Positions 11,737 through 64,000 of a stretch of 64,000 bases of DNA are shown piece by piece (position 1 is the stretch's first letter; the number at the start of each line of letters is the position of its first letter). The stretch comes from Candidatus Anstonellales archaeon (GTDB lineage: Archaea > Micrarchaeota > Micrarchaeia > Anstonellales > CG1-02-47-40), in NCBI GenBank assembly GCA_038869735.1, contig JAWCQO010000005.1:7538-71537 (forward strand), in the 5' to 3' direction. A program made the translations under genes and the position numbers. Under the pieces are notes generated by a model. It was not told the DNA's origin, did not search any database, and worked only from the letters and a program-made list of their open reading frames with translations.

Positions 11737-11809
11737 GGGGCTGTGTGCTAACTTGGTATGCTTCCAGGTTTGGGACCTGGCGGTCTGAGTTCAAATCTCA
11801 GCAGCCCCA
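11737..11809 (+). tRNA. tRNA-Pro (anticodon UGG), intronless. The D-stem is irregular.
   Basis: Acceptor GGGGCUG/CAGCCCC, anticodon arm CCAGG-UUUGGGA-CCUGG, T-arm CUGAG-UUCAAAU-CUCAG. No CCA is encoded. Confidence 0.55.
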
Positions 11810-12114: not shown

Positions 12115-12256
12115 GGGCTCGTGGCGCAGTGGTAGCGCGCGTGCTTTGCATTTCTGAAAGAGAAATTGATGAGGAACAAAAAAGCACGAGGCCGTGGGTT
12201 CAAAAATGGAAGGGAAAGAGCTTGCTTTCTTCCTTTTGAAATTCCCACCGAGTCCA
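12115..12256 (+). tRNA. tRNA-Ala (UGC) with two introns: canonical 37/38 (about 12151-12182) and T-loop 59/60 (about 12205-12242)
   Basis: Acceptor GGGCUCG/CGAGUCC with a G3:U70 pair, D-arm GCGC-AGUGGUA-GCGC, anticodon stem CGUGC/GCACG with loop UUUGCA[intron]A, T-stem GUGGG/CCCAC interrupted after UUCAAA. Confidence 0.8.
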
Positions 12257-13424: not shown

Positions 13425-16400
13425 GGGTAAGCAATCGCATTTTTGACGCTAAGGGCGGCGGATGAAGAATGCGAGCGCGTCGTGCGGTTGCGCGAGCGCT
13501 TTATGAGGATGAAGGGAAAACCGTAAGATTCACAAGAGAGTATGGATATGATATGCTGCTTTAGGCTTGGCAGGGGATAGCTTGGCTTGGGCAATATATC
13601 CGCCGTGGCAAGCAGCGAAATGCCCGTGGTAGGCGCAGGCTGCCTGTAATCACGGGGTTGCGGATTTACGCGGGGAATTAAAACATTCTAGTACCCGCAG
13701 GAAAAGAAAAAAATTTGATTTGGCTAGTAAGGGCGACTGAACGCCAAACAGGGCGACCCGAATAGTCCGTCGCGAGGCGGAAAAGATGTGGGACCGCAAA
13801 ATCTCTCTCTGTGGAGAAGAAACCTCTGGAAAGTGGTGCCATAGAGGGTGAAAGCCCCGTATTCGAACCGGAGAGAGACGAGGTAAAAAGAGTAGTGTCC
13901 ATTGGTGATTGGGCACAAATATGGCAGAATCAACTGCCAACCCTAAATATACCCCAAGACCGATAGCGTACAAGTAGCGCGAGCGAAAGCTGAAAAGGAC
14001 CCCGGGAGGGGTGTGAAAAGAGCTTGAAACTGTCAAGCCACAGTTTGATGCGGCCAAAAAGCGGTTTATGTCCTTCAAAGCAACTGCTGGAGACGGCAGA
14101 AGCGAGAAGGAAGTAGCATGGTTGCATCGTCCTTCTATAAGCAAGGGCCAGGGAGTTTTCCTCAACGGCGAGGCGAAAGCCGGAGCGAAAGCGAGTACTA
14201 ACGTGCGACAAGTCGTTGGGGAAAGACCCGAAGCCGATGTGAGCTATACGTGGGCAGGGCGAAGCCGGCCTGACGGCTGGTGAAGGCCCGCAACCAGTAC
14301 TAGTATATTCTGTTTGGGTGACCTGCGTATAGGGGTGATAGTCCAGTCGAACTCGGCAATAGCGGGCTCCTCCTGAAGTATATCTCAGTATAGCGGCGCC
14401 GGAGCATGTCATACAGGGTAGAGCACTGATTAGGAGGAATGGGCCCGAGAGGGCTCGCCTTCTTGTCAAACTCCGAATCTGTATGAAGCGTAGATGGTGC
14501 TAGTAGGCTTCTCTCGGGTAAGCCGAGAGGACTGTACGGGAACAACCGTTACCGCGGTTAAGGCCCCCAAATCTTGGCTAAGTGCAACTTAAAAGAGTCT
14601 CTGCTCAAAAACAGCTGGGAGGTAGGCTTAGAAGCAGCCATCCTTCAAACAACGCGTAATAGCGGACCAGCCGAGAGCGCAGATTCTGAAAATGCTCGGG
14701 GCTATAAGCCAAGTGCCGATACCGCGGAGTGGCGCATTATGTAGATGCGCGCAATCTGGTAAGGAGGCGAACCGGTTGGGCAGAAGCGCGGGCGTAAGCT
14801 CGCGTGGACCGGCTGGTTATGATAATCCTGGTATTAGTAGCAGCATATCCAGGTGAGAATCCTGGACGCCGGAAGCACGCGGGTTCCTTGGCGATGCTCG
14901 TCAGCCAAGGGTAAGGCGATCCTAAGCGTCGCGCTAATCGCAAAGACGCGAAAGGGAAACCGGTTAAGATTCCGGTTCCAGACGGATAGGTGCGGTAACG
15001 CGAGGGTGTCTTTCTGACGCTTTGGGGTAGGCTCAGTGGAGGAGACTCCATTTAAGCAGGATAGTTCTCTGGAGTCTAGTTGTTAGGAGAAGGAGAACAA
15101 ACTGCGAAGGCCACACGGTTGAGCTGACCCCTGGAGCCCGTGAAAAGGAAAGACACAGCGATTCCGTCTGCTCGTACCTAGAACCAGTACAGGTGGTGCT
15201 GGCAGAAAAAGCCAAGGCGTGGCAGGAGAACTCTCGTAAGGGAACTTGGCAAATTAGTGGCGTAACTTCGGGATAAGCCATGCCTGCGGTTCTCTAAAAA
15301 GGAACTGCAGGTCTCAGTGACAAGGGGAGACCGACTGTTTACCAAAAACACAGGTCATCGCTGAGCCGAAAGGCTGAGTACAATGGCCGATGCCTGCTCA
15401 CTACTGGTACGTCAAACTCCGGTCCAACGGAGCGAAGCGCCAGCAAAGAGCGGGGGTAACTCTGACCCTCTTAAGGTAGCGTAATACCTCGCCGCTTAAT
15501 TGGTGGCTTGCATGAAGGGCATAACGAGTCTCCCACTGTCCCTACGAGGGACCTGGTGAACTTACTACTCTGTGAATATGCAGAGGACTTCCAGGGGGAA
15601 ACGAAGACCCCGTGGAGCTTTACTATAGCCTGTTGTTGGAATGCGGTGATGGTCGCGGAGCGTAAATGGGAGCCGTTAAGCCGTACCTTTTGGGGTGCGG
15701 ATAGGCGCCGTTGTAACACCATTCGGCTGTTATTGCATTTCTTACCGGAAGGGACAGCGACAGGTGGATAGTTTGGCTGGGGCGGTACATCCTCGATAAG
15801 GAAACAAGGATGCCCAATGTTCGGCTTAGGTGCGTCAGAAATGCACCGTTAAGGGACAAGGACAAATGCCGGACTGACTGTATCCCTAAAAGCATCGGAT
15901 GCAGAGGCGAAAGCCGGGCCTAACGAACCTTGGTATCCCTTTTGATGAGGGTCCAAGCTGTCAGACAAGCTACCCCGGGGGTAACAGGCTCGTCGCGGGC
16001 GAGAGACGCCTATCTTTAAGTTTTTAAAAAAGAAGGTAGGTGCTCAAATACCCATCGACCCCGCGGTTTGGTACATCGCTGTCGGCCTAGGTCATCCTGG
16101 CGGTGCAGGAGCCGCCAATGGTTGGGTTGTTCATCCATTAAAGACCTACACGAGCTGGGTTCAGAACGTCGCGAGACAGTTCGGTAGTATCTCCTGGGAG
16201 TGCAAATCCGCCTGAGAGGAAGAACCCTTAAGTACGAGAGGAACTTGGGTTCGAAGCCTCTGGTGTACCGGTTGTGAAAAGCAGATGCCGGGCAGCTACG
16301 CTTTATGGGATAAGACCTGAAAGCATCTAAGGTCGAAGCTCATCTCAAAACGAGGCGGTTTGGCGGTCGTAGCAGACGACTTTGATAGGAGGGAGGTGTA

Positions 16401-16460
16401 AGAGCCAAGCGCAAGCGAGGCTTTCAGCCTGCCCCTTACTAAAAGCCAGATGTATATCAT
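13425..16460 (+). rRNA. 23S: 23S (large-subunit) rRNA; ends approximate to +/-50 nt
   Basis: 5'-domain matches include ggcggatgaagaatgcgagcg, gggaattaaaacattctagtacccgcaggaaaagaaa and ctggaaagtggtgccatagagggtgaaagccccgta. The peptidyl-transferase region has ctgggttcagaacgtcgcgagacagttcggt. The sarcin-ricin loop agtacgagaggaac is at about 16223. Confidence 0.85.
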
Positions 16461-16685
16461 ATCCATTCCCTCTTCTGGAGCTTGCGGTTTTCTCAAAATC
16501 CTTAAAAACACTTTTTTCTGAAGTTCTGGTGCTTGAATGTGTTTAGACTGGCTCTTTCTTGCGCTATCTAACTTCTAATCTTTGCTTTCTATAGTTGTTG
16601 CTGCCTATAGGGTAATAATATTGCCACAATATTGAAAACGAAGGATATAGGCTTCCTTGCGCTATCTGCCTCTAATCTTTGCTAT

Positions 16686-34308: not shown

Positions 34309-34455
34309 GGGCCCGTAGCGCAACGGATAGCGCGCTTGGCTTCGGTCACAATTGAGCCTGAAAGTGGAAGAAACCAAGAGGTTGCGGGTTCGAATCAGCT
34401 GATGTTAGGACTTTGACATTGCCTAAGCATAACTGTGACAATCCCGTCGGGCCCG
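34309..34455 (+). tRNA. tRNA-Arg (UCG) with two introns: canonical 37/38 (about 34346-34372) and T-loop (about 34396-34442)
   Basis: Acceptor GGGCCCG/CGGGCCC+G, D-arm GCGC-AACGGAUA-GCGC, anticodon stem CUUGG/CCAAG with loop CUUCGG[intron]A, T-stem GCGGG/CCCGU with UUCGAAU interrupted. Confidence 0.75.
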
Positions 34456-52424: not shown

Positions 52425-52514
52425 CGCTCCGACCGGGATTTGAACCCGGGTTACCGGCTTTCTTCACGAAAATTTGAAAGGCCGGCGTCCTTGACCGGGC
52501 TAGACTATCGGAGC
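52425..52514 (-). tRNA. tRNA-Glu (UUC) with a short (about 15 nt) canonical anticodon-loop intron
   Basis: RNA sequence GCUCCGA..GUCU-AGCCCGGUCAA-GGAC..CCGGC-CUUUCA[AUUUUCGUGAAGAAA]A-GCCGG..CCGGG-UUCAAAU-CCCGG-UCGGAGC-G. Confidence 0.7.
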
Positions 52515-52516
52515 TC

Positions 52517-53119
52517 TCAGACTGGGATTACGCTTAAGGATCTAAGAAGCCTTATTATTTGTGAATGTATTTCTTGTTTGTCTTTTGCTCCATCTATCTT
52601 TATCCATTTTTTGGTTAGGAATTTTGAAGTATAAAGTTTTTTGTAGTTTTTTCTTGTCTGTGTGAGGAGATTGAAGTTTGATTCGTGAGTATCGAGGTGA
52701 AGTTTCTGTTTCTTTTTGCGAGATTGGGAGGTGGCGACGTCGACATCAAGGAGGATTATTACATCTGGTGTACAGAAGGGAAAGGACGAGATGATGTTTA
52801 TTGCTTCTTTAAAAGATATTGAGCGTGAGTAGGCTATTGTTGAAGTTATGTATCTGTCTAAAATCACTATGCGGTCTTCTTCTAGTTCTCTATTTATTTT
52901 TTGTTGGTTGAGTAGGATATCCAGCAAGTAAAGAAAGAATACAGTCCTGAGTGGCAACTTTGACTTTCCAGATAGATATGTGTGTATTTTTGAGGCTTTT
53001 TTTGTAGGGTATTTGTGGATTGAAAATTTTATTTTTCTTGATTTTAGAAATGAAGATAGTAATTGGATTTGTGTGGCTTTCCCGCTTCCATCTATACCTT
53101 CAAATATGATGAGGGGCAT
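52517..53119 (-). CDS. tmk: Thymidylate kinase
   Basis: P-loop FEGIDGSGKATQ; DRY motif ILDRYITSTIAYS. Confidence 0.8.
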   Translation of the reverse strand: MPLIIFEGIDGSGKATQIQLLSSFLKSRKIKFSIHKYPTKKASKIHTYLSGKSKLPLRTVFFLYLLDILLNQQKINRELEEDRIVILDRYITSTIAYSRSISFKEAINIISSFPFCTPDVIILLDVDVATSQSRKKKQKLHLDTHESNFNLLTQTRKNYKKLYTSKFLTKKWIKIDGAKDKQEIHSQIIRLLRSLSVIPV

Positions 53120-55425: not shown

Positions 55426-55499
55426 CGGGCCCGATGGGATTTGAACCCATGACACGCGGGTTAAGAGCCCGCTGCTCTGCCAACCTGAGCTACAGGCCC
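55426..55499 (-). tRNA. tRNA-Lys (CUU), intronless
   Basis: RNA sequence GGGCCUG-UA-GCUC-AGGUUGGCAG-GAGC-A-GCGGG-CUCUUAA-CCCGC-GUGUC-AUGGG-UUCAAAU-CCCAU-CGGGCCC-G. Confidence 0.8.
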
Positions 55500-55558: not shown

Positions 55559-56137
55559 TTGAGTTTTGAGGTTGGAAGAGCTATGGTAGGTGAAGTCAAC
55601 AAGGAAGGGATCTTTGTTTTTAGGGTTGGGCATCGTGTTGGTAGGGACGAGCGCGCCAGCACCCACCTTTTTTTAGCTGCTCGAGCGCTTGGTGCCACGG
55701 GAGCGTATTATTCTGGCCAAAGGGATTGTGAGTTGGAGAGTAGATTGAAGAGGGTTGTGGGGAGTTGGGGTGGGCATTTCTTTTTAGAATATGTTGGGGA
55801 AGGTTGGAAAATGTTTTTGGATAGGTGGAAGAAAATAGGGGGGACAATCGTTCACTTAACTATGTATGGTGAACGGGTGGGTGATGTTTTAGGAAGTATT
55901 GGTGACCGGCGTCCGTTGTTAATTGTTGTCGGCGGTGCGAAGGTGTCTTATGAGGTTTATGGCAAAGCTGACTTTAATGTTGCCATAGGAAATCAGCCTC
56001 ATTCTGAAATTGCCGCGGTAGCTATATTTTTAGACAGGTATTTAAAGGGTGAGTGGGAGGCGTTTGGTTTTGAGAAGGCAAGGATTAAGATCGTGCCATC
56101 AAAAATGGGAAAAAAGGTAATAGAATGTAAAAAATAG
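55559..56137 (+). CDS. trm56: tRNA (cytidine56-2'-O)-methyltransferase aTrm56-like (SPOUT)
   Basis: FVFRVGHRVGRDERASTHLFLAARALGATGAYYSG resembles the aTrm56 N-terminal signature. Confidence 0.6.
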   Translation: MSFEVGRAMVGEVNKEGIFVFRVGHRVGRDERASTHLFLAARALGATGAYYSGQRDCELESRLKRVVGSWGGHFFLEYVGEGWKMFLDRWKKIGGTIVHLTMYGERVGDVLGSIGDRRPLLIVVGGAKVSYEVYGKADFNVAIGNQPHSEIAAVAIFLDRYLKGEWEAFGFEKARIKIVPSKMGKKVIECKK

Positions 56138-56198: not shown

Positions 56199-56858
56199 AT
56201 GAAGAATATTAAAAGGGATAAGCGCCGACGGACCGCTAAGATAAGGGGCAGGGTTCGTGCGGTGAGTAAAAAATTCAAAAGTAATGGTAGGGGAGTGAGT
56301 GTTAAGAGAGTTGGTGGTTTGAAGGTAGTAAGAAATAAAACTAAAAAAGGTTTGAAGAAGGCAAGTACAAAAAAATTGCAAAAAAGTTTGGTTTATAGAA
56401 AAAGAATGGAGCTTCTATCAACCGCTCTTAGTAGGCAAAAAATGATTGAATTGGGTGGTGAGGAGGCAATTAAAGTTATAAGTGCATTTTCGAAAGATAT
56501 GTCCGACGAAGAGCTTGCAAAGAGAGCTGAGGTAAGGATTTGTGATGTTAGAACGGTTTTGAATCGTTTGCATGCTGTTGGTTTAGTTAGTTATGTTAGG
56601 AACCGAGATCAGTCAAGTGGGTGGTATACGTATATATGGAGAATTAATGACGATCTTTTTGAAAGGTTTTCAAATTATATGAATATTGGTGGTGGAGAGG
56701 GGGGAGAACAGACGCAGAATTTTGAAGGAGAATACTACTGCTGCAGGCGTTGTGGTACAGGAAGTTTAATTAATTTTGACGACGCTTTTTCAAAAAAATT
56801 TATCTGTAGTTGTGGTGCTCCGCTTGAGTATTTTAAGCGTGATAGAGATAACTTATAA
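56199..56858 (+). CDS. tfe: Transcription factor E (TFE/TFIIE-alpha homolog). The wHTH plus Zn-ribbon core probably starts at the Met at 56406; the longest ORF adds a 69-aa Lys/Arg-rich N-terminal extension.
   Basis: MELLSTALSRQKMIELGGEEAIKVISAF...EELAKRAEVRICDVRTVLNRLHAVGLVSY. The Zn ribbon is CCRRCG...CSCGAPL. Confidence 0.7.
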   Translation: MKNIKRDKRRRTAKIRGRVRAVSKKFKSNGRGVSVKRVGGLKVVRNKTKKGLKKASTKKLQKSLVYRKRMELLSTALSRQKMIELGGEEAIKVISAFSKDMSDEELAKRAEVRICDVRTVLNRLHAVGLVSYVRNRDQSSGWYTYIWRINDDLFERFSNYMNIGGGEGGEQTQNFEGEYYCCRRCGTGSLINFDDAFSKKFICSCGAPLEYFKRDRDNL

Positions 56859-56862
56859 GTAA

Positions 56863-56969
56863 AGCGGGATGGGGTAGTTTGGAGTGCCCGCTGGGCTCAT
56901 AACCCAGAGATCGGTGGTTCAAAGTTCTGGTTTTTATGGAAACCAGAAATGAAAGTCCACCTCCCGCTA
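56863..56969 (+). tRNA. Initiator tRNA-Met (CAU) with a non-canonical T-loop intron (about 56922-56955)
   Basis: A1:U72 acceptor AGCGGGA/UCCCGCU; three G:C pairs in anticodon stem CUGGG-CUCAUAA-CCCAG; T-stem GGUGG/CCACC split after UUCAAAG by a hairpin-forming insert. Confidence 0.8.
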
Positions 56970-57812
56970 CTTCCACTAATCAAATATACGTGGTTGGTTT
57001 TCTGTTCTCTATTTTAGTCAAATATTATTGATTGGTTCTTAATCAGATATGGTTGGTTCTCTAATTGTTTGGTTTGGTTGTTGTTTGTTAGTCTAGAAAT
57101 TCTGGGTTCTTTTTCTATTTTGTTTTTTGGTTGTAGTCTATTTATAAAGTAAACCTAAACTATTATTAATATTTTATGTAACTATAGTTACATTATGTTA
57201 TTATATTTCTACGATTTGAAAGCAAAAGATTTAAGACTATATAATAACATAAAACGCCGATTTTATTACGAACTATCAACATCAAAACTCACACAAGCCT
57301 TTTTTAGAACAAAATCCGTCTTAGTAGTTCCAGATGAATTAGAAACGTATGCAGATAATTTTTTTAAAAAATATTCAGAATATCTAGAAGTTTACAAAGC
57401 TCGAACACGCCTCATCCTTCAAATAAACTAACTCCGTATTCTCAACTACACATAACATATAAACAACAACATATAAACAACAAGCGCAGTTTCTAATAGA
57501 ATAAACAAAAACAGAAATCACAACCAAACCCAACCAAACACTCAACAAATATCCCAACTCGCCCATCTATTAAAGCTAACAAAAACTATACTCCTTCTTT
57601 AATTATTCCTTCTTTAATTATATTACCTTCTTAAATAAACAAAAAATTAATTATATTACCTTCTTAAATAAACAAAAAAAGCAAAACAATAAATTATAGT
57701 TCAAAGTACTTAGTTAAGTATTCGGCGAGACACTACTAGACACTAATTAATTGGTAGGTGTTAAACAACTAAGTAGGGTTAAAACAATTAGTGGAAGCGT
57801 CCCCCCACACTA

Positions 57813-58073
57813 TTATAAACTAGCACTCCCCCCAGCAGCACTTTTTGATACAACAACCACATCTTCAATAGACCGAACACTTTTAAACAAAACACTTCGA
57901 TCTCTAAGTATTTTTTTTGCTTCTTCTTTTGATACGACATTTAATGGTTCCATAGTAAGACGGACAACTTCTCCTGCCTCTAAATCAATAATAATATCCT
58001 GTACCTTACCAAGAAATCTTCCTCCATCAGTGTAGATATCCATTCCGTATATTGATGAAAGCGCCATGCTCAT
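57813..58073 (-). CDS. PRC-barrel domain protein
   Basis: GMDIYTDGGRFLGKVQDIIIDLEAGEVVRL fits the PRC barrel pattern. Confidence 0.5.
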   Translation of the reverse strand: MSMALSSIYGMDIYTDGGRFLGKVQDIIIDLEAGEVVRLTMEPLNVVSKEEAKKILRDRSVLFKSVRSIEDVVVVSKSAAGGSASL

Positions 58074-58192: not shown

Positions 58193-58804
58193 ATGAAAGG
58201 GTTTTTTACATTCTTCTTAATCTTTGTTTTTACTTTCTTACTCCTACTTATTTCCACATCACGACCAACCTATCAAACAAACCCATACTTAAAAATAAAC
58301 ACTTTGGCAACAGAGAAAATAGCATTTACCTCTTCCAATATACGTCAAGCATTTGTTAAATACCTTTCAAAAAATATGCTCCCAATCTTACTGGGGAGAG
58401 TATCTCCAGATCCAGAAACGCGCGCAATTTCAGAAGCAAGGCTTCTAACACTTCTCTCCACATTTGAACTTATCGCCGAGAATAATGATCTTCTTAATAT
58501 AGATTTATGGTGTGGAACAACTCCTCATACTGAGCTTAACCAAATAGCCCTAGAATCAACAAAACAACGAAAACCAATTAAATGCCAAAACTGCTACGAC
58601 CTATCCGCACCAATCTGCACTAATTATATCAAAACCGACCTATCATCGAAAACAGCGCAACTTTCCAATTTTCAACAAAATCCACTTATTTTTGGTGGTT
58701 TTGGTTTAACAATCTGTTCTAAAAAAGGAGAAATCTGTAACGTATCTAAAATTCCCCAAGAGCTGGTGATACATCTTGAAAGCGCAGATCTCGATGGAGG
58801 TTGA
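58193..58804 (+). CDS. Pilin-like protein with a short N-terminal signal (MKG then hydrophobic), candidate class III signal peptide
   Basis: MKGFFTFFLIFVFTFLLLLIS. Confidence 0.45.
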   Translation: MKGFFTFFLIFVFTFLLLLISTSRPTYQTNPYLKINTLATEKIAFTSSNIRQAFVKYLSKNMLPILLGRVSPDPETRAISEARLLTLLSTFELIAENNDLLNIDLWCGTTPHTELNQIALESTKQRKPIKCQNCYDLSAPICTNYIKTDLSSKTAQLSNFQQNPLIFGGFGLTICSKKGEICNVSKIPQELVIHLESADLDGG

Positions 58805-59093
58805 GCTCTCTCTTCTCATACTCACAATACTCATACTTTTCTTTATCAACACAGCTACCATTCACATATCCTCCATAATCTTAGCTCAACGGCAGCTCAC
58901 CACTGATTTCATGGTTGAAGACGCAGCAGAATATGTTGGCGCCTTTGCTCTGCTACCAGGAATATCCTATACACGAATCTTACCTCCAATAAAGACAAAC
59001 ATTACTGATATCTGGTTAAACAATTCTAGAACAAAGAGCATAACACCTATATTTAATGGGCGGGTGTTATCTGATGAAAAAGAGCGCGTATAA
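58776..59093 (+). CDS. Type IV pilin-like protein (class III signal peptide)
   Basis: MKA followed by QISMEVELSLLILTILILFF: Gln at +1 and Glu at +5 after a KA cleavage site. Confidence 0.55.
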   Translation: MKAQISMEVELSLLILTILILFFINTATIHISSIILAQRQLTTDFMVEDAAEYVGAFALLPGISYTRILPPIKTNITDIWLNNSRTKSITPIFNGRVLSDEKERV

Positions 59094-59499
59094 CCATAAT
59101 TACCTAGGCTTCATGACGCTAGAGCTATCCATCTCCTTTCTACTTGTGCTGCTGAATTTTATGGCATTCGTTCAATATTGTGATAAAATATTAGCTGTAG
59201 ATAAAGATATTTTGGACGAATACACCAAACTTCGTAAGATCTCTGATCTATCAACATTCTTAGTAAAGAAGGGGCTTGTTGAAGAGCATCCCACCTATTA
59301 CAATACACACATCCTCTCCCCAACAAAACTATCCATAATCGAGCAACTCCAGGAAGATGCGCTAAGCCAACTTAACCTCAACTCAGTAAAAATCTATATC
59401 TCAACAACTCCCCCACCAGAAAACCAACATCGCATCTGCGTAACTCGCATCGTCCTTCTATCAAACAAACCATCAACCCTCATTGTGTGTGGTAATTAG
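59056..59499 (+). CDS. Type IV pilin-like protein (class III signal peptide)
   Basis: ...NYLG followed by FMTLELSISFLLVLLNFMAF: Gly at -1, Phe at +1, Glu at +5. Confidence 0.5.
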   Translation: MGGCYLMKKSAYNHNYLGFMTLELSISFLLVLLNFMAFVQYCDKILAVDKDILDEYTKLRKISDLSTFLVKKGLVEEHPTYYNTHILSPTKLSIIEQLQEDALSQLNLNSVKIYISTTPPPENQHRICVTRIVLLSNKPSTLIVCGN

Positions 59500-59872
59500 T
59501 ATGCTTTCATTCGAAGCCTTATTCTCATACATGACACTCACCTCTATCATCCTCCTATTACTTCTTACTCCCACCCCCCAACCAGACTACTCCCTTCAAT
59601 CATACAATCTACTTTTAGACATAATCACTATACTTGAAAAATCTTCAGCTATTGAAGAAATCATAACGAACGCACCGAATCCCAACGTAAAAAACAAGCT
59701 TGATGAGGTTACTCAACTCAGTGGATTTTGCTTGACAATCGAATCATCATATATTAATGTATCTGGATGCCACAACCCAAGCCCGGAAATCTACTCTGAA
59801 AGCGCCATAATCATAACAAAAGAACAAACACCACTCACAATTCGTTTCTCACTACAAAAAGAAAAATTTTAA
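59483..59872 (+). CDS. Small protein with an N-terminal hydrophobic helix (possible minor pilin)
   Basis: MLSFEALFSYMTLTSIILLLLL. Confidence 0.35.
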   Translation: MCVVISMLSFEALFSYMTLTSIILLLLLTPTPQPDYSLQSYNLLLDIITILEKSSAIEEIITNAPNPNVKNKLDEVTQLSGFCLTIESSYINVSGCHNPSPEIYSESAIIITKEQTPLTIRFSLQKEKF

Positions 59873-60189
59873 ACAAACAAACCAAAACTTACAACATGCA
59901 CATCTCAAAAAGATCTCTTATAACCTACTTCTCAAAACTGGGCATAACCATAATTAAAGACCCCAAAAACCCCTCCATCTTTCTTGTTTACCCACCAGGA
60001 AAGCCTCATGAGGAAGAGACAGCCAAATATCTACTCCTAATCCCTGATAAGGCGTACATTCAATTTACAAAACTCAACTATTTTATAAATATAGCAGGAC
60101 GCCTTCGCAAGGGCCTCCTCATCCCAACTTCTCAAAAACCACCATTCAATTTTGTGTTTGTGCAAAGAATAACCAAGTGGTAATGAAAG

Positions 60190-60714
60190 ATGACCTATTG
60201 TATCAAATGTGGAAGGCTAACTGAGCCTTGGGATTTCGCATACTACGCCCGCGACTTAATGTGTATCCCCTGCTATAAACAATACATCGACTCAGTAAGA
60301 AAGATGCGTTGTGCACTATGTGCCATTCAGATTTTACCCGAAGATGTGGTTTATCTCAAAAAAAGGCCACTATGCAGGCAGTGTTATAGTGAAGAAATTG
60401 AACGCATCACCACAACATCATGTAGGGGGTGTAAACGAATAGTCAAAAAATACGAACCCAGTCACAAACTTCCTCAAGGCGGCATCCTTTGCGACGATTG
60501 TTTCAGGAAAAACGCCATTAAACTTAGAGCAAGAGAATGCTATCGCTGTTTTGCACCTCTTGGGCCAAACAAAAAGATTTTAGGAGACGAAGTTCTTTGC
60601 GGCGCATGCTATCTAGAAAAAGTAGAGTTCAATTCACTTAAAAACAAATTTCTCTCAACAATCCGTGCAATATTATCAACACAAACCCTTCCAGCAGACG
60701 CCGGAACCGATTAA
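60190..60714 (+). CDS. Multi-zinc-ribbon protein (at least 7 CxxC pairs)
   Basis: CIKCG, CIPCY, CALCA, CRQCY, CRGCK, CDDCF, CYRCF, CGACY. Confidence 0.5.
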   Translation: MTYCIKCGRLTEPWDFAYYARDLMCIPCYKQYIDSVRKMRCALCAIQILPEDVVYLKKRPLCRQCYSEEIERITTTSCRGCKRIVKKYEPSHKLPQGGILCDDCFRKNAIKLRARECYRCFAPLGPNKKILGDEVLCGACYLEKVEFNSLKNKFLSTIRAILSTQTLPADAGTD

Positions 60715-60819
60715 AAACAAAGAACTCTTCAACATCAATTAAGGCAAACCTAACCACTCTAATATTCACAAAAACATCAAAGAGTATTCAAAAAATCAAA
60801 GCCATAAGAGAAATCAAAC

Positions 60820-61800
60820 TCATTGGCGCTTAAACATCTTTATAACATAATCCAGAACATCAGAGTTTGCGTACCTTTTACAGACAAAAACTCGTTCTTT
60901 CCCTCTTCTATGGTCTCTCCAAATACAAAATTCAAGAAGAAATTTTTTCAAACTATTCTTATGCTTTTTTTTGAGCTTCTCGTAAGCTTTATTAGCTATT
61001 ATCTCCACCCCCACCCTACACCGTTCCTCATCATAAAGCTCTGGTCGCATCTCATTAGCCAACCACAATGCTTCCTCAGGATGGCTTTCCAGATACCTAA
61101 ACAACATCTCCCTAACAGAAGCTTTAACCACCTTACCTCTACCAACACCAACGGCAACTGCCCATTTTTTATCAACTGCAGGATCAACATCAGAACTGTC
61201 AATAGCCCCCACAACTGCCTCCTCTTTCTTTAAAAGAAGAAGCGTTACAAACAACTCACTATCAACATGCCCAGTACAAAATTTACGAAGAGTGTTAATA
61301 ATCTCAAAACATTTATCTTTCTCACCAACCATAATTAGAGGGCTAATTTCACCCATAATAACCCCCGCGATTTTCTCAACAACCACTCTTTCATTATCCA
61401 TATTACTTACTTTCTCTGTAGACCCGACTCCCTTCTCAAAAAAATCTTTCCAAAGTCCCAATTGCCCAACTTCTACTACCGGTCCGTAATCCCTCCATCC
61501 GGACCGCTCCAGTACCTTCCCTTCTCCTTTTTTTGATACGTTGAGCTCTCCTACTTTCTTAGATACAAGAGATAATGCAGAAAGAAGTCGCTCCCTGCTA
61601 AACTCAGACAAAAATCCTCTCAAAAAGACATCCCCAAGCCTTCCAAGAGCAATCCATTCTAAAAAATTGAACGATTCATCAGCCAAACCAGTTAAACTCG
61701 CCCCACCCCCTTTCTCCAAGTTTGATTTACTAACAACACTTAAAAAATCCACAAATGTCCCACCTATTGTCTTTTTGCATTCTTCATATCTTGGATACAA
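60820..61800 (-). CDS. Hypothetical protein (326 aa)
   Basis: ORF; no family call. Confidence 0.45.
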   Translation of the reverse strand: MYPRYEECKKTIGGTFVDFLSVVSKSNLEKGGGASLTGLADESFNFLEWIALGRLGDVFLRGFLSEFSRERLLSALSLVSKKVGELNVSKKGEGKVLERSGWRDYGPVVEVGQLGLWKDFFEKGVGSTEKVSNMDNERVVVEKIAGVIMGEISPLIMVGEKDKCFEIINTLRKFCTGHVDSELFVTLLLLKKEEAVVGAIDSSDVDPAVDKKWAVAVGVGRGKVVKASVREMLFRYLESHPEEALWLANEMRPELYDEERCRVGVEIIANKAYEKLKKKHKNSLKKFLLEFCIWRDHRRGKERVFVCKRYANSDVLDYVIKMFKRQ

Positions 61801-63152
61801 CTCTCAAGCTCAACTCCTCCCTTCCACATACACCTCCCTTCAACACACCCACATCCACCAAATTTTGAATAGCAAGCATACTCTGGTCGCATCTCACAAG
61901 TTGTTATTGTATCGTTTTTCCCTACCCTTACACACAACTGTCCGGAGCAACCAGCAACAACACAATCCATGTCAACAACACATTCAGGTTTAAAATAATC
62001 GCGACATTCTTGTGCAAGCTTGCTGTCAACAATTCTATCACAATAATCAACCTTCCCGCTTCCAATCGCAACTTGCCCCCAACAATCGTCCTTCATCTCA
62101 GATACAAAATCACATAGCTCGGCTCTTCCACCAGAACTACCAGCCAACGCCACATAACACTTATCTTTTCTATCTTTACTCCTAATCCGCTCACAATACT
62201 TTTCATCATTATTCACTATGCCCCTATCATAGTAGCAGCGGTCTTTTTCCTCATGCCCAACAAATTTTTCACACCCAATATAATTGTCTAATCGCTTGAG
62301 TACGGCTAAAAACATCTCCTCAACTTCTAATTCATCTACTAAAGTTTCGGGAGCTGCAACTTCAATAACTCCCTTAGTAAAGTTCTTTACAACTGATATT
62401 GATGAGCGCTGCTGGCCACCCACTGGCAAATATCTCATCTCATAATAAATCGGAATTCCGTCCCCTCCAAGACACATCACCCAACTAAAATTAGAGAAGT
62501 GGGTAAGCGCAGGACTCGTAGCAGACATACCCAAAATAGCCAAATCCTCAACAGACAGCTTTCTATAATCTATTGCATACTCCAACTTCTTACAGCTACG
62601 CCCTTCATATTCCCTCTCCTCAATTTCATTAGTAAAGTTTAACACTCCCTTCTTTATAAGAAATCCGAGTTTGTCTCTCTCCTTAGCCGCAACTAAATCA
62701 AAAAACTGATTCCTCTGGTTTGAAAGAAAATCAAGTAAAAGATTGCTTGAGTTCGGGCGCGCACATTTCCTTATCTCAGAATAATTTATACATACATATT
62801 CATTCCACCCATCAAAATACACGCTTCTCTTAGATACAGCATCCTCTATCAAAACAAATCTAAGACTTCCATTGCGCATAATTATTTTTTTTTGAGGAAG
62901 TCCAATAGATTGCTCTTCATATTCTATTGTATACTCATCCATCTTTCCTAGTTTATCATACGCATCCAACAACAAGCGAGCCTGAGCAGACATTGCGGTG
63001 CTCCCGCTATCCCCACCCAACCCATCACGCCAACCAAAATATATTGTGAGGAGTACGCCAATCAATACAGCTAACACAAGTAAAAGAATGAGAAAACTAA
63101 ACTTCGGAGTTCCCGTTGTGCCAGATTCCTTCACCACAAAAATCCCCAGCAA
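61764..63152 (-). CDS. N-terminally membrane-anchored extracellular protein with a Cys-rich C-terminal module
   Basis: N-terminal TM FSFLILLLVLAVLIGVLLTIYF. C-terminus ECRDYFKPECVVDMDCVVAGCSGQLC...CGCVEGRC. Confidence 0.5.
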   Translation of the reverse strand: MLGIFVVKESGTTGTPKFSFLILLLVLAVLIGVLLTIYFGWRDGLGGDSGSTAMSAQARLLLDAYDKLGKMDEYTIEYEEQSIGLPQKKIIMRNGSLRFVLIEDAVSKRSVYFDGWNEYVCINYSEIRKCARPNSSNLLLDFLSNQRNQFFDLVAAKERDKLGFLIKKGVLNFTNEIEEREYEGRSCKKLEYAIDYRKLSVEDLAILGMSATSPALTHFSNFSWVMCLGGDGIPIYYEMRYLPVGGQQRSSISVVKNFTKGVIEVAAPETLVDELEVEEMFLAVLKRLDNYIGCEKFVGHEEKDRCYYDRGIVNNDEKYCERIRSKDRKDKCYVALAGSSGGRAELCDFVSEMKDDCWGQVAIGSGKVDYCDRIVDSKLAQECRDYFKPECVVDMDCVVAGCSGQLCVRVGKNDTITTCEMRPEYACYSKFGGCGCVEGRCMWKGGVELESCIQDMKNAKRQ

Positions 63153-63183: not shown

Positions 63184-64000
63184 TTAAATCTTTCTCTTCA
63201 CCAGATACTCCGCAAGCCGGATCAGCTTCCTCTTAGCAGGACAATCTCTAATCAAACTAAGTTTTTTATATGCGTCTTCAATCATTCTCGTCTCAACACG
63301 CTTGGCATATTCTATGCTCCTGTATTTTTTCATTATCTTAACAACCCAAGATACGCTTTCTTTGTCCCCCTTACAGGAGTCAAGAATTTCAATCATTTTT
63401 CTTCTTTCTCCAGGGCTCGCCTTATTCAGGGCGTGCAATACCATAAGTGTTCGCTTACCCTCCCTAATGTCACCTCCAATTTCCTTTCCATAAATTTTCT
63501 CAGAACCTGTAATGTTGAGAATATCGTCCTGTATTTGAAATGCCATCCCAATTTTCATCCCAAACTCATAAAGCCCCTCAGTCTGTCCTCCACTCCCACC
63601 ACCAATAATCGATCCAACCTCACAAGAACCAGCTATAAGCGCCCCGGTCTTACCTTTCACCATTTCAAGATAATCATCCTCACCAATATCCCAAATCTTG
63701 TCCCGATGCCACCTAAGCTCTACGGCCTGGCCCTCTAAAACCATAGTAAATGCATGATGAAGCCTTCTTTGCACTTCTAACTGAACCTTCGGCACAACAT
63801 CGAGTTCCAAAACAGCTTTCCACGCCATCATAAAAAGCCCATCACCTGCATTTATGGCTATTGGCAATCCGTGGCTTATGTGAAGACAAGGCTCCCCTCT
63901 CCTCATCTTGGAGTTGTCCTCTATATCATCATGTATGAGTGTGAAGTTATGGAACAATTCAATACAGACTGCTGCAGGGAGAGCATCCTCTCTCTTCCCA
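63184..64000 (-). CDS. idsA: Polyprenyl (geranylgeranyl) diphosphate synthase; the 5' end is beyond the window edge
   Basis: The frame stays open to the window end, reading ALPAAVCIELFHNFTLIHDDIED(x)RRG (first Asp-rich motif) and FQIQDDILN (second motif). Confidence 0.8.
   Translation of the reverse strand, partial: GKREDALPAAVCIELFHNFTLIHDDIEDNSKMRRGEPCLHISHGLPIAINAGDGLFMMAWKAVLELDVVPKVQLEVQRRLHHAFTMVLEGQAVELRWHRDKIWDIGEDDYLEMVKGKTGALIAGSCEVGSIIGGGSGGQTEGLYEFGMKIGMAFQIQDDILNITGSEKIYGKEIGGDIREGKRTLMVLHALNKASPGERRKMIEILDSCKGDKESVSWVVKIMKKYRSIEYAKRVETRMIEDAYKKLSLIRDCPAKRKLIRLAEYLVKRKI

Follow-up and report, generated by a model that had tools for sequence, protein, structure and literature searches.

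A 32-nt intron predicted between positions 59 and 60 of the initiator tRNA-Met gene of a Candidatus Anstonellales archaeon

The window analyzed here, a stretch of 64,000 nt (64 kb) from Candidatus Anstonellales archaeon, carries an initiator tRNA-Met (iMet) gene near its right end, downstream of a gene for a TFE-alpha protein (56199-56858). The parts of the iMet gene are as follows.

56863-56969, + strand: archaeal initiator tRNA-Met gene, 107 nt unspliced, anticodon CAT, one predicted intron of 32 nt
56863-56923, + strand: exon 1, tRNA positions 1-59, comprising the 5' acceptor strand AGCGGGA, the D-arm, the anticodon arm, the 5' strand of the T-stem, and T-loop nucleotides 54-59 (TTCAAA)
56913-56917, + strand: 5' strand of the T-stem, GGTGG
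56924-56955, + strand: predicted intron, 32 nt, GTTCTGGTTTTTATGGAAACCAGAAATGAAAG, between tRNA positions 59 and 60, placed by the fold, ARAGORN, and the ortholog alignment
56956-56969, + strand: exon 2, tRNA positions 60-73, comprising T60, CCACC, the 3' acceptor strand TCCCGCT, and the discriminator A73
56957-56961, + strand: 3' strand of the T-stem, CCACC

Read directly, 56863-56969 has the sequence AGCGGGA-TG-GGGT...GCCC-G-CTGGG-CTCATAA-CCCAG-AGATC-GGTGG-(39 nt)-CCACC-TCCCGCT-A. An A1:T72 pair, a CAT anticodon, and a GGG/CCC anticodon stem are the classic marks of an archaeal or eukaryotic initiator tRNA, and the three G:C pairs that close the anticodon stem are an initiator determinant. 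All of these are present in the gene: the CAT anticodon lies at 56898-56900, both in the sequence itself and in the ARAGORN prediction on the spliced form; the acceptor stem AGCGGGA/TCCCGCT opens with A1:T72 (A56863 paired to T56968); and the anticodon arm GGGCTCATAACCC (56893-56905) has three consecutive G:C pairs (positions 29-31 with 39-41, GGG/CCC). The A1:U72 pair is described as one that matters for archaeal and eukaryotic initiators (PMC5393177). CCA is not encoded at the 3' end of 56863-56969. This gene contains the sole iMet anticodon arm within the 64-kb window, and of the iMet genes matched in genomes and metagenomes, the closest share 66 to 69 of 75 nt with its exons. On the evidence of its sequence, 56863-56969 is a genuine archaeal initiator tRNA-Met gene.

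The two halves of the iMet T-stem are separated by 39 nt, compared with the usual 7. ARAGORN calls no tRNA on unspliced 56863-56969, and the Rfam tRNA score of the unspliced gene is 18.7 bits, under the gathering score of 29 (intron-less orthologs, described below, score 60 to 64 bits). A 7-nt T-loop is required, and 32 nt must therefore be removed; their excision gives a 75-nt tRNA with the T-loop TTCAAAT, which ARAGORN then calls as tRNA-Met(cat) with a perfect cloverleaf. The minimum free energy (MFE) fold of the unspliced 107 nt combines this cloverleaf with a bulge-helix-bulge (BHB) motif (-47.2 kcal/mol, z = -4.5; 0 of 200 shuffles as good), which has the following elements.

56918-56921, + strand: T54 T55 C56 A57, 5' strand of the central 4-bp BHB helix, paired with 56950-56953 in the MFE fold
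56922-56924, + strand: 5' bulge, A58 A59 and G (intron nucleotide 1), with the predicted 5' splice site between 56923 and 56924
56925-56934 with 56939-56948, + strand: inner helix h' of the intron, 10 bp, one of them G-U
56950-56953, + strand: TGAA, 3' strand of the central BHB helix, from the MFE fold and homolog pair counts
56954-56956, + strand: 3' bulge, A G and T60, with the predicted 3' splice site between 56955 and 56956

At the 59/60 junctions, the central helix UUCA/UGAA (4 bp) thus lies between the 3-nt bulges AAG and AGU in the MFE fold. The outer helix h is the 5-bp T-stem, the inner helix h' is the 10-bp intron hairpin, and an unpaired A (56949) between this hairpin and the central helix makes the motif a near-strict hBHBh'. 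Exon nucleotides p-5 to p-2 pair with intron nucleotides N-5 to N-2 in the iMet intron, as they do in the three canonical 37/38 introns of the window (tRNA-Glu, tRNA-Arg, and tRNA-Ala). The BHB rule calibrated on those three introns, in which the cut follows the second nucleotide of the bulge, places the cuts in iMet after A59 and before U60. Within the window, the iMet intron is present in a single copy. A guide or other embedded RNA was considered and set aside because no Rfam match overlaps the intron and no C or D box could be seen by eye in the 32 nt; judged by its sequence and fold, the intron is without evident function of its own and of the ordinary kind removed by the archaeal tRNA-splicing enzyme.

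The TFE-alpha protein is also encoded in six Logan assemblies and on the metagenome-assembled genome (MAG) GCA_038870215.1, the locus of which matches the window at 99.2% identity. Of the Logan assemblies, three are 100% identical to the window and two more than 99% identical, and one ends 47 nt into the tRNA. We found no papers that name this MAG or its sequencing runs. Beyond the window, 6 assemblies of the species span the iMet tRNA and its intron, and both are identical in all of them, which leaves covariation within the species uninformative. TFE homologs with 37 to 49% identity lead to contigs with the gene order Trm56-TFE-iMet-PRC-polyprenyl synthase, and the syntenic iMet gene has no intron on several of them (L079/L080, L082/L083, and L087). 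These intron-less orthologs align to the iMet gene of the window with a single clean 32-nt gap at 59/60 and to its spliced form without any gap, and their T-loop is TTCAAAT. The exon boundaries are therefore set by gap-free collinearity, independently of any folding rule. The T-stems of the orthologs change in compensating fashion (GGTGG/CCACC, GATGG/CCATC, and AGTGG/CCACT), and such compensated changes plus one D-arm substitution are the only differences between the exons of the window gene and the intron-less orthologs. By this synteny, the locus in the window is the ancestral iMet locus, and the BHB rule and ortholog collinearity together predict splice sites at 59/60. The intron is a lineage-specific state, reached either by gain here or by loss in the other lineages.

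These results bear on several proposals of a preliminary description of this DNA. The initiator identity that it had read from the A1:U72 pair and the three G:C pairs holds, CAT being present as well and the gene being syntenic with intact iMet genes. The GGUGG/CCACC T-stem is indeed split, the hairpin CTGGTTT...AAACCAG that it had pointed out lies in the insert, and an hBH-like structure, the lack of which it had named as grounds for rejecting an intron, is found in near-strict form exactly at the junctions. The insert itself stands; its boundary does not. An insert of about 33 nt following UUCAAAG had been proposed, but the predicted intron is 32 nt long and starts after TTCAAA, so that the G is its first base. 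With a cut after G56924 instead (60/61), the T-loop would be UUCAAAG and a different intron of 32 to 33 nt would be released; a 7-nt T-loop and identical stems result from both choices of boundary. We consider this alternative highly improbable, because the rule of cutting after the second nucleotide of each 3-nt bulge also reproduces the 37/38 junctions of tRNA-Ala, tRNA-Arg, and tRNA-Glu, all intron-less orthologs have TTCAAAT, and T60 is invariant in 46 aligned homolog sequences.

Those homologs come from searches for iMet genes with inserts in the T-loop. Species-representative genomes were scanned once with a pattern consisting of an iMet anticodon arm, TTCRAA, an insert, and YGAA-NN-TC, which yielded 64 matches. 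We kept the 47 archaeal matches with 5/5 T-stem pairs, most of which also have 7/7 acceptor pairs, and left out the bacterial matches, which fail T-stem complementarity; the one among them with 5 nominal pairs, L056, has no acceptor stem and was likewise left out. By this one restricted pattern scan, 47 species genomes of archaea, spread over many lineages, show the same iMet 59/60 architecture. These include many Bathyarchaeia, Asgard groups, Thermoplasmata, Methanosarcinales, and Methanomassiliicoccales, as well as Woese-, Micr-, and Aenigmatarchaeota, Altiarchaeales, Hadarchaeota, and Thaumarchaeota. A scan of JGI metagenomes that made no demand for TGAA found 7 iMet genes with T-loop inserts, none of the 7 syntenic with the window; TGAA or TGAG stands exactly at N-5 to N-2 in 6 of them.

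Pairing in the homologs was assessed by the positional rule calibrated on canonical introns, combined with pair counting. Among 46 distinct sequences of T-arm and intron ends, the T-stem is 100% paired, with 4 of its 5 pairs changed on both sides, while pairing in the inner helix of the intron amounts to 78.6%, and each of its 6 pairs covaries. The set of central-helix pairs is kept in 98.9% of cells, the pairing being imposed by the search pattern on 39 of the 46 homologs; the genome scan demanded TGAA, so central-helix conservation is independent only in the 7 metagenome matches, of which 6 have it. None of 500 shuffles reached the observed pairing, and slid registers scored far lower. An inner helix of at least 4 bp in the strict register is present in 25 of 48 sequences, compared with 2.8% of shuffled introns; the best inner-helix register is strict in 29 of the 48, and the offset register of the window is best in 5 (the window included). 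MFE folding was rejected as a general BHB detector because most homologs prefer a longer hairpin with a symmetric internal loop, and the support that it lends to a BHB is therefore specific to the sequence of the window.

The predicted 59/60 intron of iMet is thus not rare. The preliminary description had called an intron at this position unusual, a view at odds with the 47 genomes and with the status of 59/60 as a documented non-canonical site; a spliceable T-loop intron, which it had also proposed, agrees with the structure, the orthologs, and the covariation, so that the finding, introns of this sort being common in the group to which the organism belongs, is correct but unsurprising. In several iMet genes with 59/60 introns (L009, L019, L027, L028, L035, L037, L040, L045, L046, L048, L062, and L063), the 5' acceptor strand is missing at the expected distance, which suggests that their 5' half contains additional introns or is split. 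Two MAGs, L034 and L069, one labelled Thermococci and the other Thermoproteales, are identical in iMet, intron, and flanks, and at least one taxonomic label or bin is therefore doubtful.

The failure of the unspliced gene with ARAGORN and at the Rfam gathering threshold, together with an iMet search that covered the 64-kb window, would also fit a pseudogene, that is, an iMet copy inactivated by a 32-nt insertion while a working iMet gene lies outside the window. This too is very unlikely: the insert creates the exact BHB geometry needed for splicing, every stem is intact and the exons differ only in the compensated and D-arm changes given above, the gene occupies the ancestral syntenic position and is unchanged across the covering assemblies of its species, and the 47 other archaeal genomes share its architecture, with covariation. 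That the insert is retained, giving a tRNA-like RNA with an expanded T-arm and another job, is barely credible, since U54-A57 would presumably stay paired to the insert and form no normal 7-nt T-loop, the insert sits in a textbook endonuclease substrate, and orthologs exist that do not have it. The intron is supported by the sequence, by the fold, by the exact alignment of the spliced tRNA with intron-less orthologs, and by covariation among homologs, and we conclude with high confidence that the locus is the functional, single syntenic iMet gene of this Candidatus Anstonellales archaeon (Micrarchaeia, DPANN), with a 32-nt BHB intron predicted at 59/60.

We propose the following course for expression and processing of the gene, beginning at a putative promoter element.

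56831-56836, + strand: TTTTAA box, a putative TATA element that lies 26 nt ahead of the first tRNA nucleotide, within the 3' end of the tfe ORF

Transcription would probably start from this box, about 26 nt upstream of the gene; among the orthologs, L081 and L087 have a TTTTAA box 26 to 27 nt before their iMet gene, and in L079 the distance is 34 nt. In the precursor, U54-A57 would pair with the UGAA that lies close to the intron's 3' end, forming a 4-bp helix stacked between the T-stem and the 10-bp hairpin and exposing the bulges A58 A59 G and A G U60. The archaeal tRNA splicing endonuclease EndA, in this phylum most likely of the broad-specificity epsilon2 type, would make one cut per bulge, one following A59 and the other preceding U60, and an RtcB-type ligase would join the exons into a 75-nt tRNA with the T-loop UUCAAAU. 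T-loop modification (e.g., Cm56 by aTrm56) and CCA addition would presumably follow. C56 is paired inside the BHB helix of the precursor, and its methylation would therefore presumably come after splicing. Endonucleases that act at non-canonical positions are of the (alpha-beta)2 or epsilon2 type; the ORFs of the window that were scanned yielded neither an EndA gene (tRNA_int_endo domain) nor one for RtcB. A gene for aTrm56 (tRNA C56 2'-O-methyltransferase) lies at 55559-56137, two genes upstream of iMet, and Trm56 and TFE homologs also accompany the iMet loci L028 and L035, from MAGs of an uncultured archaeon and of Nitrosopumilales.

The window contains six tRNA genes, four of which are disrupted by introns; those other than iMet are listed here.

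11737-11809: tRNA-Pro, intron-less
12115-12256, + strand: tRNA-Ala(TGC), with introns at 12151-12182 (32 nt, 37/38) and 12205-12242 (38 nt, 59/60)
34309-34455, + strand: tRNA-Arg(TCG), with introns at 34346-34372 (27 nt, 37/38) and 34395-34441 (47 nt, 59/60-type)
52425-52514: tRNA-Glu, with a canonical 37/38 intron
55426-55499: tRNA-Lys, intron-less

Both tRNA-Ala and tRNA-Arg have introns of the 59/60 type in addition to iMet, which bears out the earlier count of iMet as the third tRNA of the window with an insert at this T-loop site. The 59/60 intron of tRNA-Ala ends in TGAA-AT / T. The T-loop intron of tRNA-Arg forms a relaxed BHB with a central helix of 3 bp, and because AAT is repeated at its two junctions, the cut could fall anywhere from 57/58 to 60/61. 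ARAGORN recognizes tRNA-Ala and tRNA-Arg once both introns are removed and misses them unspliced, and the unspliced genes fall below the Rfam gathering score (22.4 and 25.2 bits, respectively). Transposition of introns between tRNA genes was considered and rejected: outside the 3' TGAA region, no significant similarity was detected among the T-loop introns of the window (three), L081, and L074, and there is accordingly no sign of recent intron transposition. The motif TTAAGCGTRAT occurs upstream of both iMet (56831-56843) and tRNA-Glu (52526-52537, - strand), and GAAACTTTG is found just upstream of tRNA-Pro and tRNA-Ala alike; judged by position, these upstream motifs may represent elements of promoters or leaders. 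At 13546-16462, an archaeal 23S rRNA gene is preceded by tRNA-Pro and the doubly interrupted tRNA-Ala, with no 16S rRNA upstream of it anywhere in the window.

The syntenic iMet gene is found in several states: without an intron in three lineages, with the 32-nt intron at 59/60 in the window, with a 35-nt insert at 53/54 in L081, and with an insert of about 960 nt in the D-arm in L085. In L081 (2160-2269; GCA_964458205.1), the insert, which is not at 59/60, shows on reading of its sequence a 4-bp helix CAGT/GCTG and the inner helix expected of a relaxed BHB. With orthologs that have no insert, one at 59/60, or one at 53/54, the presence and position of the intron vary within the clade.

The insert of L085 (about 1965-2927; Logan SRR11567540_97492) lies after tRNA nucleotides 9 to 11 and contains an ORF of 288 aa (2022-2888), which has no Pfam, NCBIfam, or PDB match; the insert has no Rfam group I or II match. 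Compared by hand with the BHB rule at junctions 9/10, 10/11, and 11/12, it did not fit at any of them. ATAGGT and ACCTAT are able to pair across its junction. From these features, the insert may be either an intron that carries an ORF or a mobile element that disrupts the gene. On the contig L086, the TFE homolog is overlapped at its end by a LAGLIDADG-domain ORF (1245-2045, - strand) with weak similarity to RFC and V-ATPase models that contain inteins, and no iMet gene was found on the portion of that contig examined.

A more far-reaching proposal, which we regard as doubtful, is that in Micrarchaeia related to Anstonellales the iMet locus is a hotspot at which insertions have occurred recently and independently, beside a skew-switch region with origin-like inverted repeats. 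If the inserts are separate gains, the locus would offer a natural series for studying the origin of BHB introns, and if the hotspot proposal is true, the insert of L085 might be an ORF-bearing, possibly mobile, tRNA intron. We know of no description of such an intron in archaeal tRNA genes.

Comparable tRNA genes are known from several archaea. The closest parallel is ARMAN-2 (Candidatus Micrarchaeum acidiphilum), of the same phylum, in which 56% of tRNA genes are disrupted and introns occur at 59/60 and 53/54 (PMC3239211; PMC6379350). They include a 59/60 intron in pre-tRNA-Cys(GCA) and both 53/54 and 59/60 introns in pre-tRNA-Pro(GGG) (Fujishima et al. 2011, PMC3239211), and a 59/60 intron is cleaved in vitro by the broad-specificity epsilon2 endonuclease of that organism (PMC3239211). 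The window resembles ARMAN-2 in the T-loop site, the BHB or relaxed BHB, and the large share of disrupted tRNA genes (4 of 6), and the 53/54 site recurs in its syntenic relative L081. It differs in the isoacceptor, here the initiator tRNA-Met, and in the order, here Anstonellales and known from a MAG; cleavage in vitro is established for ARMAN-2, and the intron of the window is predicted from sequence.

Disrupted initiator tRNAs have been described elsewhere. The tRNA-iMet(CAU) of Thermofilum pendens is circularly permuted and joined at 59/60 (Chan et al. 2011, PMC3218864), with the 3' half upstream of the 5' half and a canonical intron, while the iMet gene of the window has collinear halves and a single intron. 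Nanoarchaeum equitans has a split tRNA-iMet (PMC3218864); like the organism studied here, it belongs to the DPANN, has a disrupted initiator tRNA gene, and requires processing by EndA, but its tRNA is assembled from two separate genes joined at 37/38, not from one gene interrupted in cis at 59/60. For Thermoproteales, Thaumarchaeota, and Aigarchaeota, tRNA introns that are non-canonical or multiple are documented (PMC8450103, PMC3293823), and such BHB introns are built into tRNAscan-SE 2.0 as BHB covariance models (PMC8450103). Those introns, like the ones predicted here, are short BHB introns outside 37/38, occur up to several per gene, and are removed by a broad-specificity EndA; the lineage of the window differs in belonging to the DPANN, and no likeness was detected among its introns.

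In practical terms, default finders miss the gene, so that the genome would seem to have no initiator tRNA, and no tRNA-Ala or tRNA-Arg either. The gene provides a DPANN example in which even the single essential initiator tRNA would rely on the splicing endonuclease. Change in intron presence and position at one orthologous gene over short evolutionary distances is of modest use for models of gain and loss, and knowledge of the splicing mechanism is unchanged by the finding.

The DNA directly 3' of iMet is an AT-rich block (56970-57800; GC 26 to 31%) where the GC skew flips sharply, being about +0.2 to +0.55 on the upstream side and about -0.3 to -0.46 on the downstream side. The block contains a perfect 11-nt inverted repeat, CTTCCACTAAT (56970-56980) and ATTAGTGGAAG (57787-57797), and T/G-rich GGTTTGGTT motifs in its left part are mirrored by AACCAAACC in its right part (GGTTTGG / CCAAACC). 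A 16-bp palindrome within it, TGTAACTATAGTTACA (about 57178-57193), is kept in the syntenic contigs L079, L081, and L082, which also have inverted ACTTCCACTA / TAGCGGAAGT boxes beside C/G strings. From composition and repeats, 56970-57800 could be a replication origin or terminus.

Use of iMet as the attachment site of an integrated element was considered and rejected, as the 3' end of the tRNA is not repeated within the window. Position 57643, where three independent Logan contigs of the species end, lies inside a perfect tandem repeat of 2 x 33 bp at 57614-57679; an att site at 57643 was discarded in favor of this duplication, which is likely assembly-breaking or copy-number-variable. Farther downstream, a block of ORFs of about 5 kb (58193-63152), nearly all without a Pfam match and with negative GC skew, lies between a PRC-barrel gene (57813-58073, - strand) and a polyprenyl synthase gene (63184-63957, - strand). 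These two genes adjoin in syntenic relatives, and by that comparison the block is a lineage-specific insertion.
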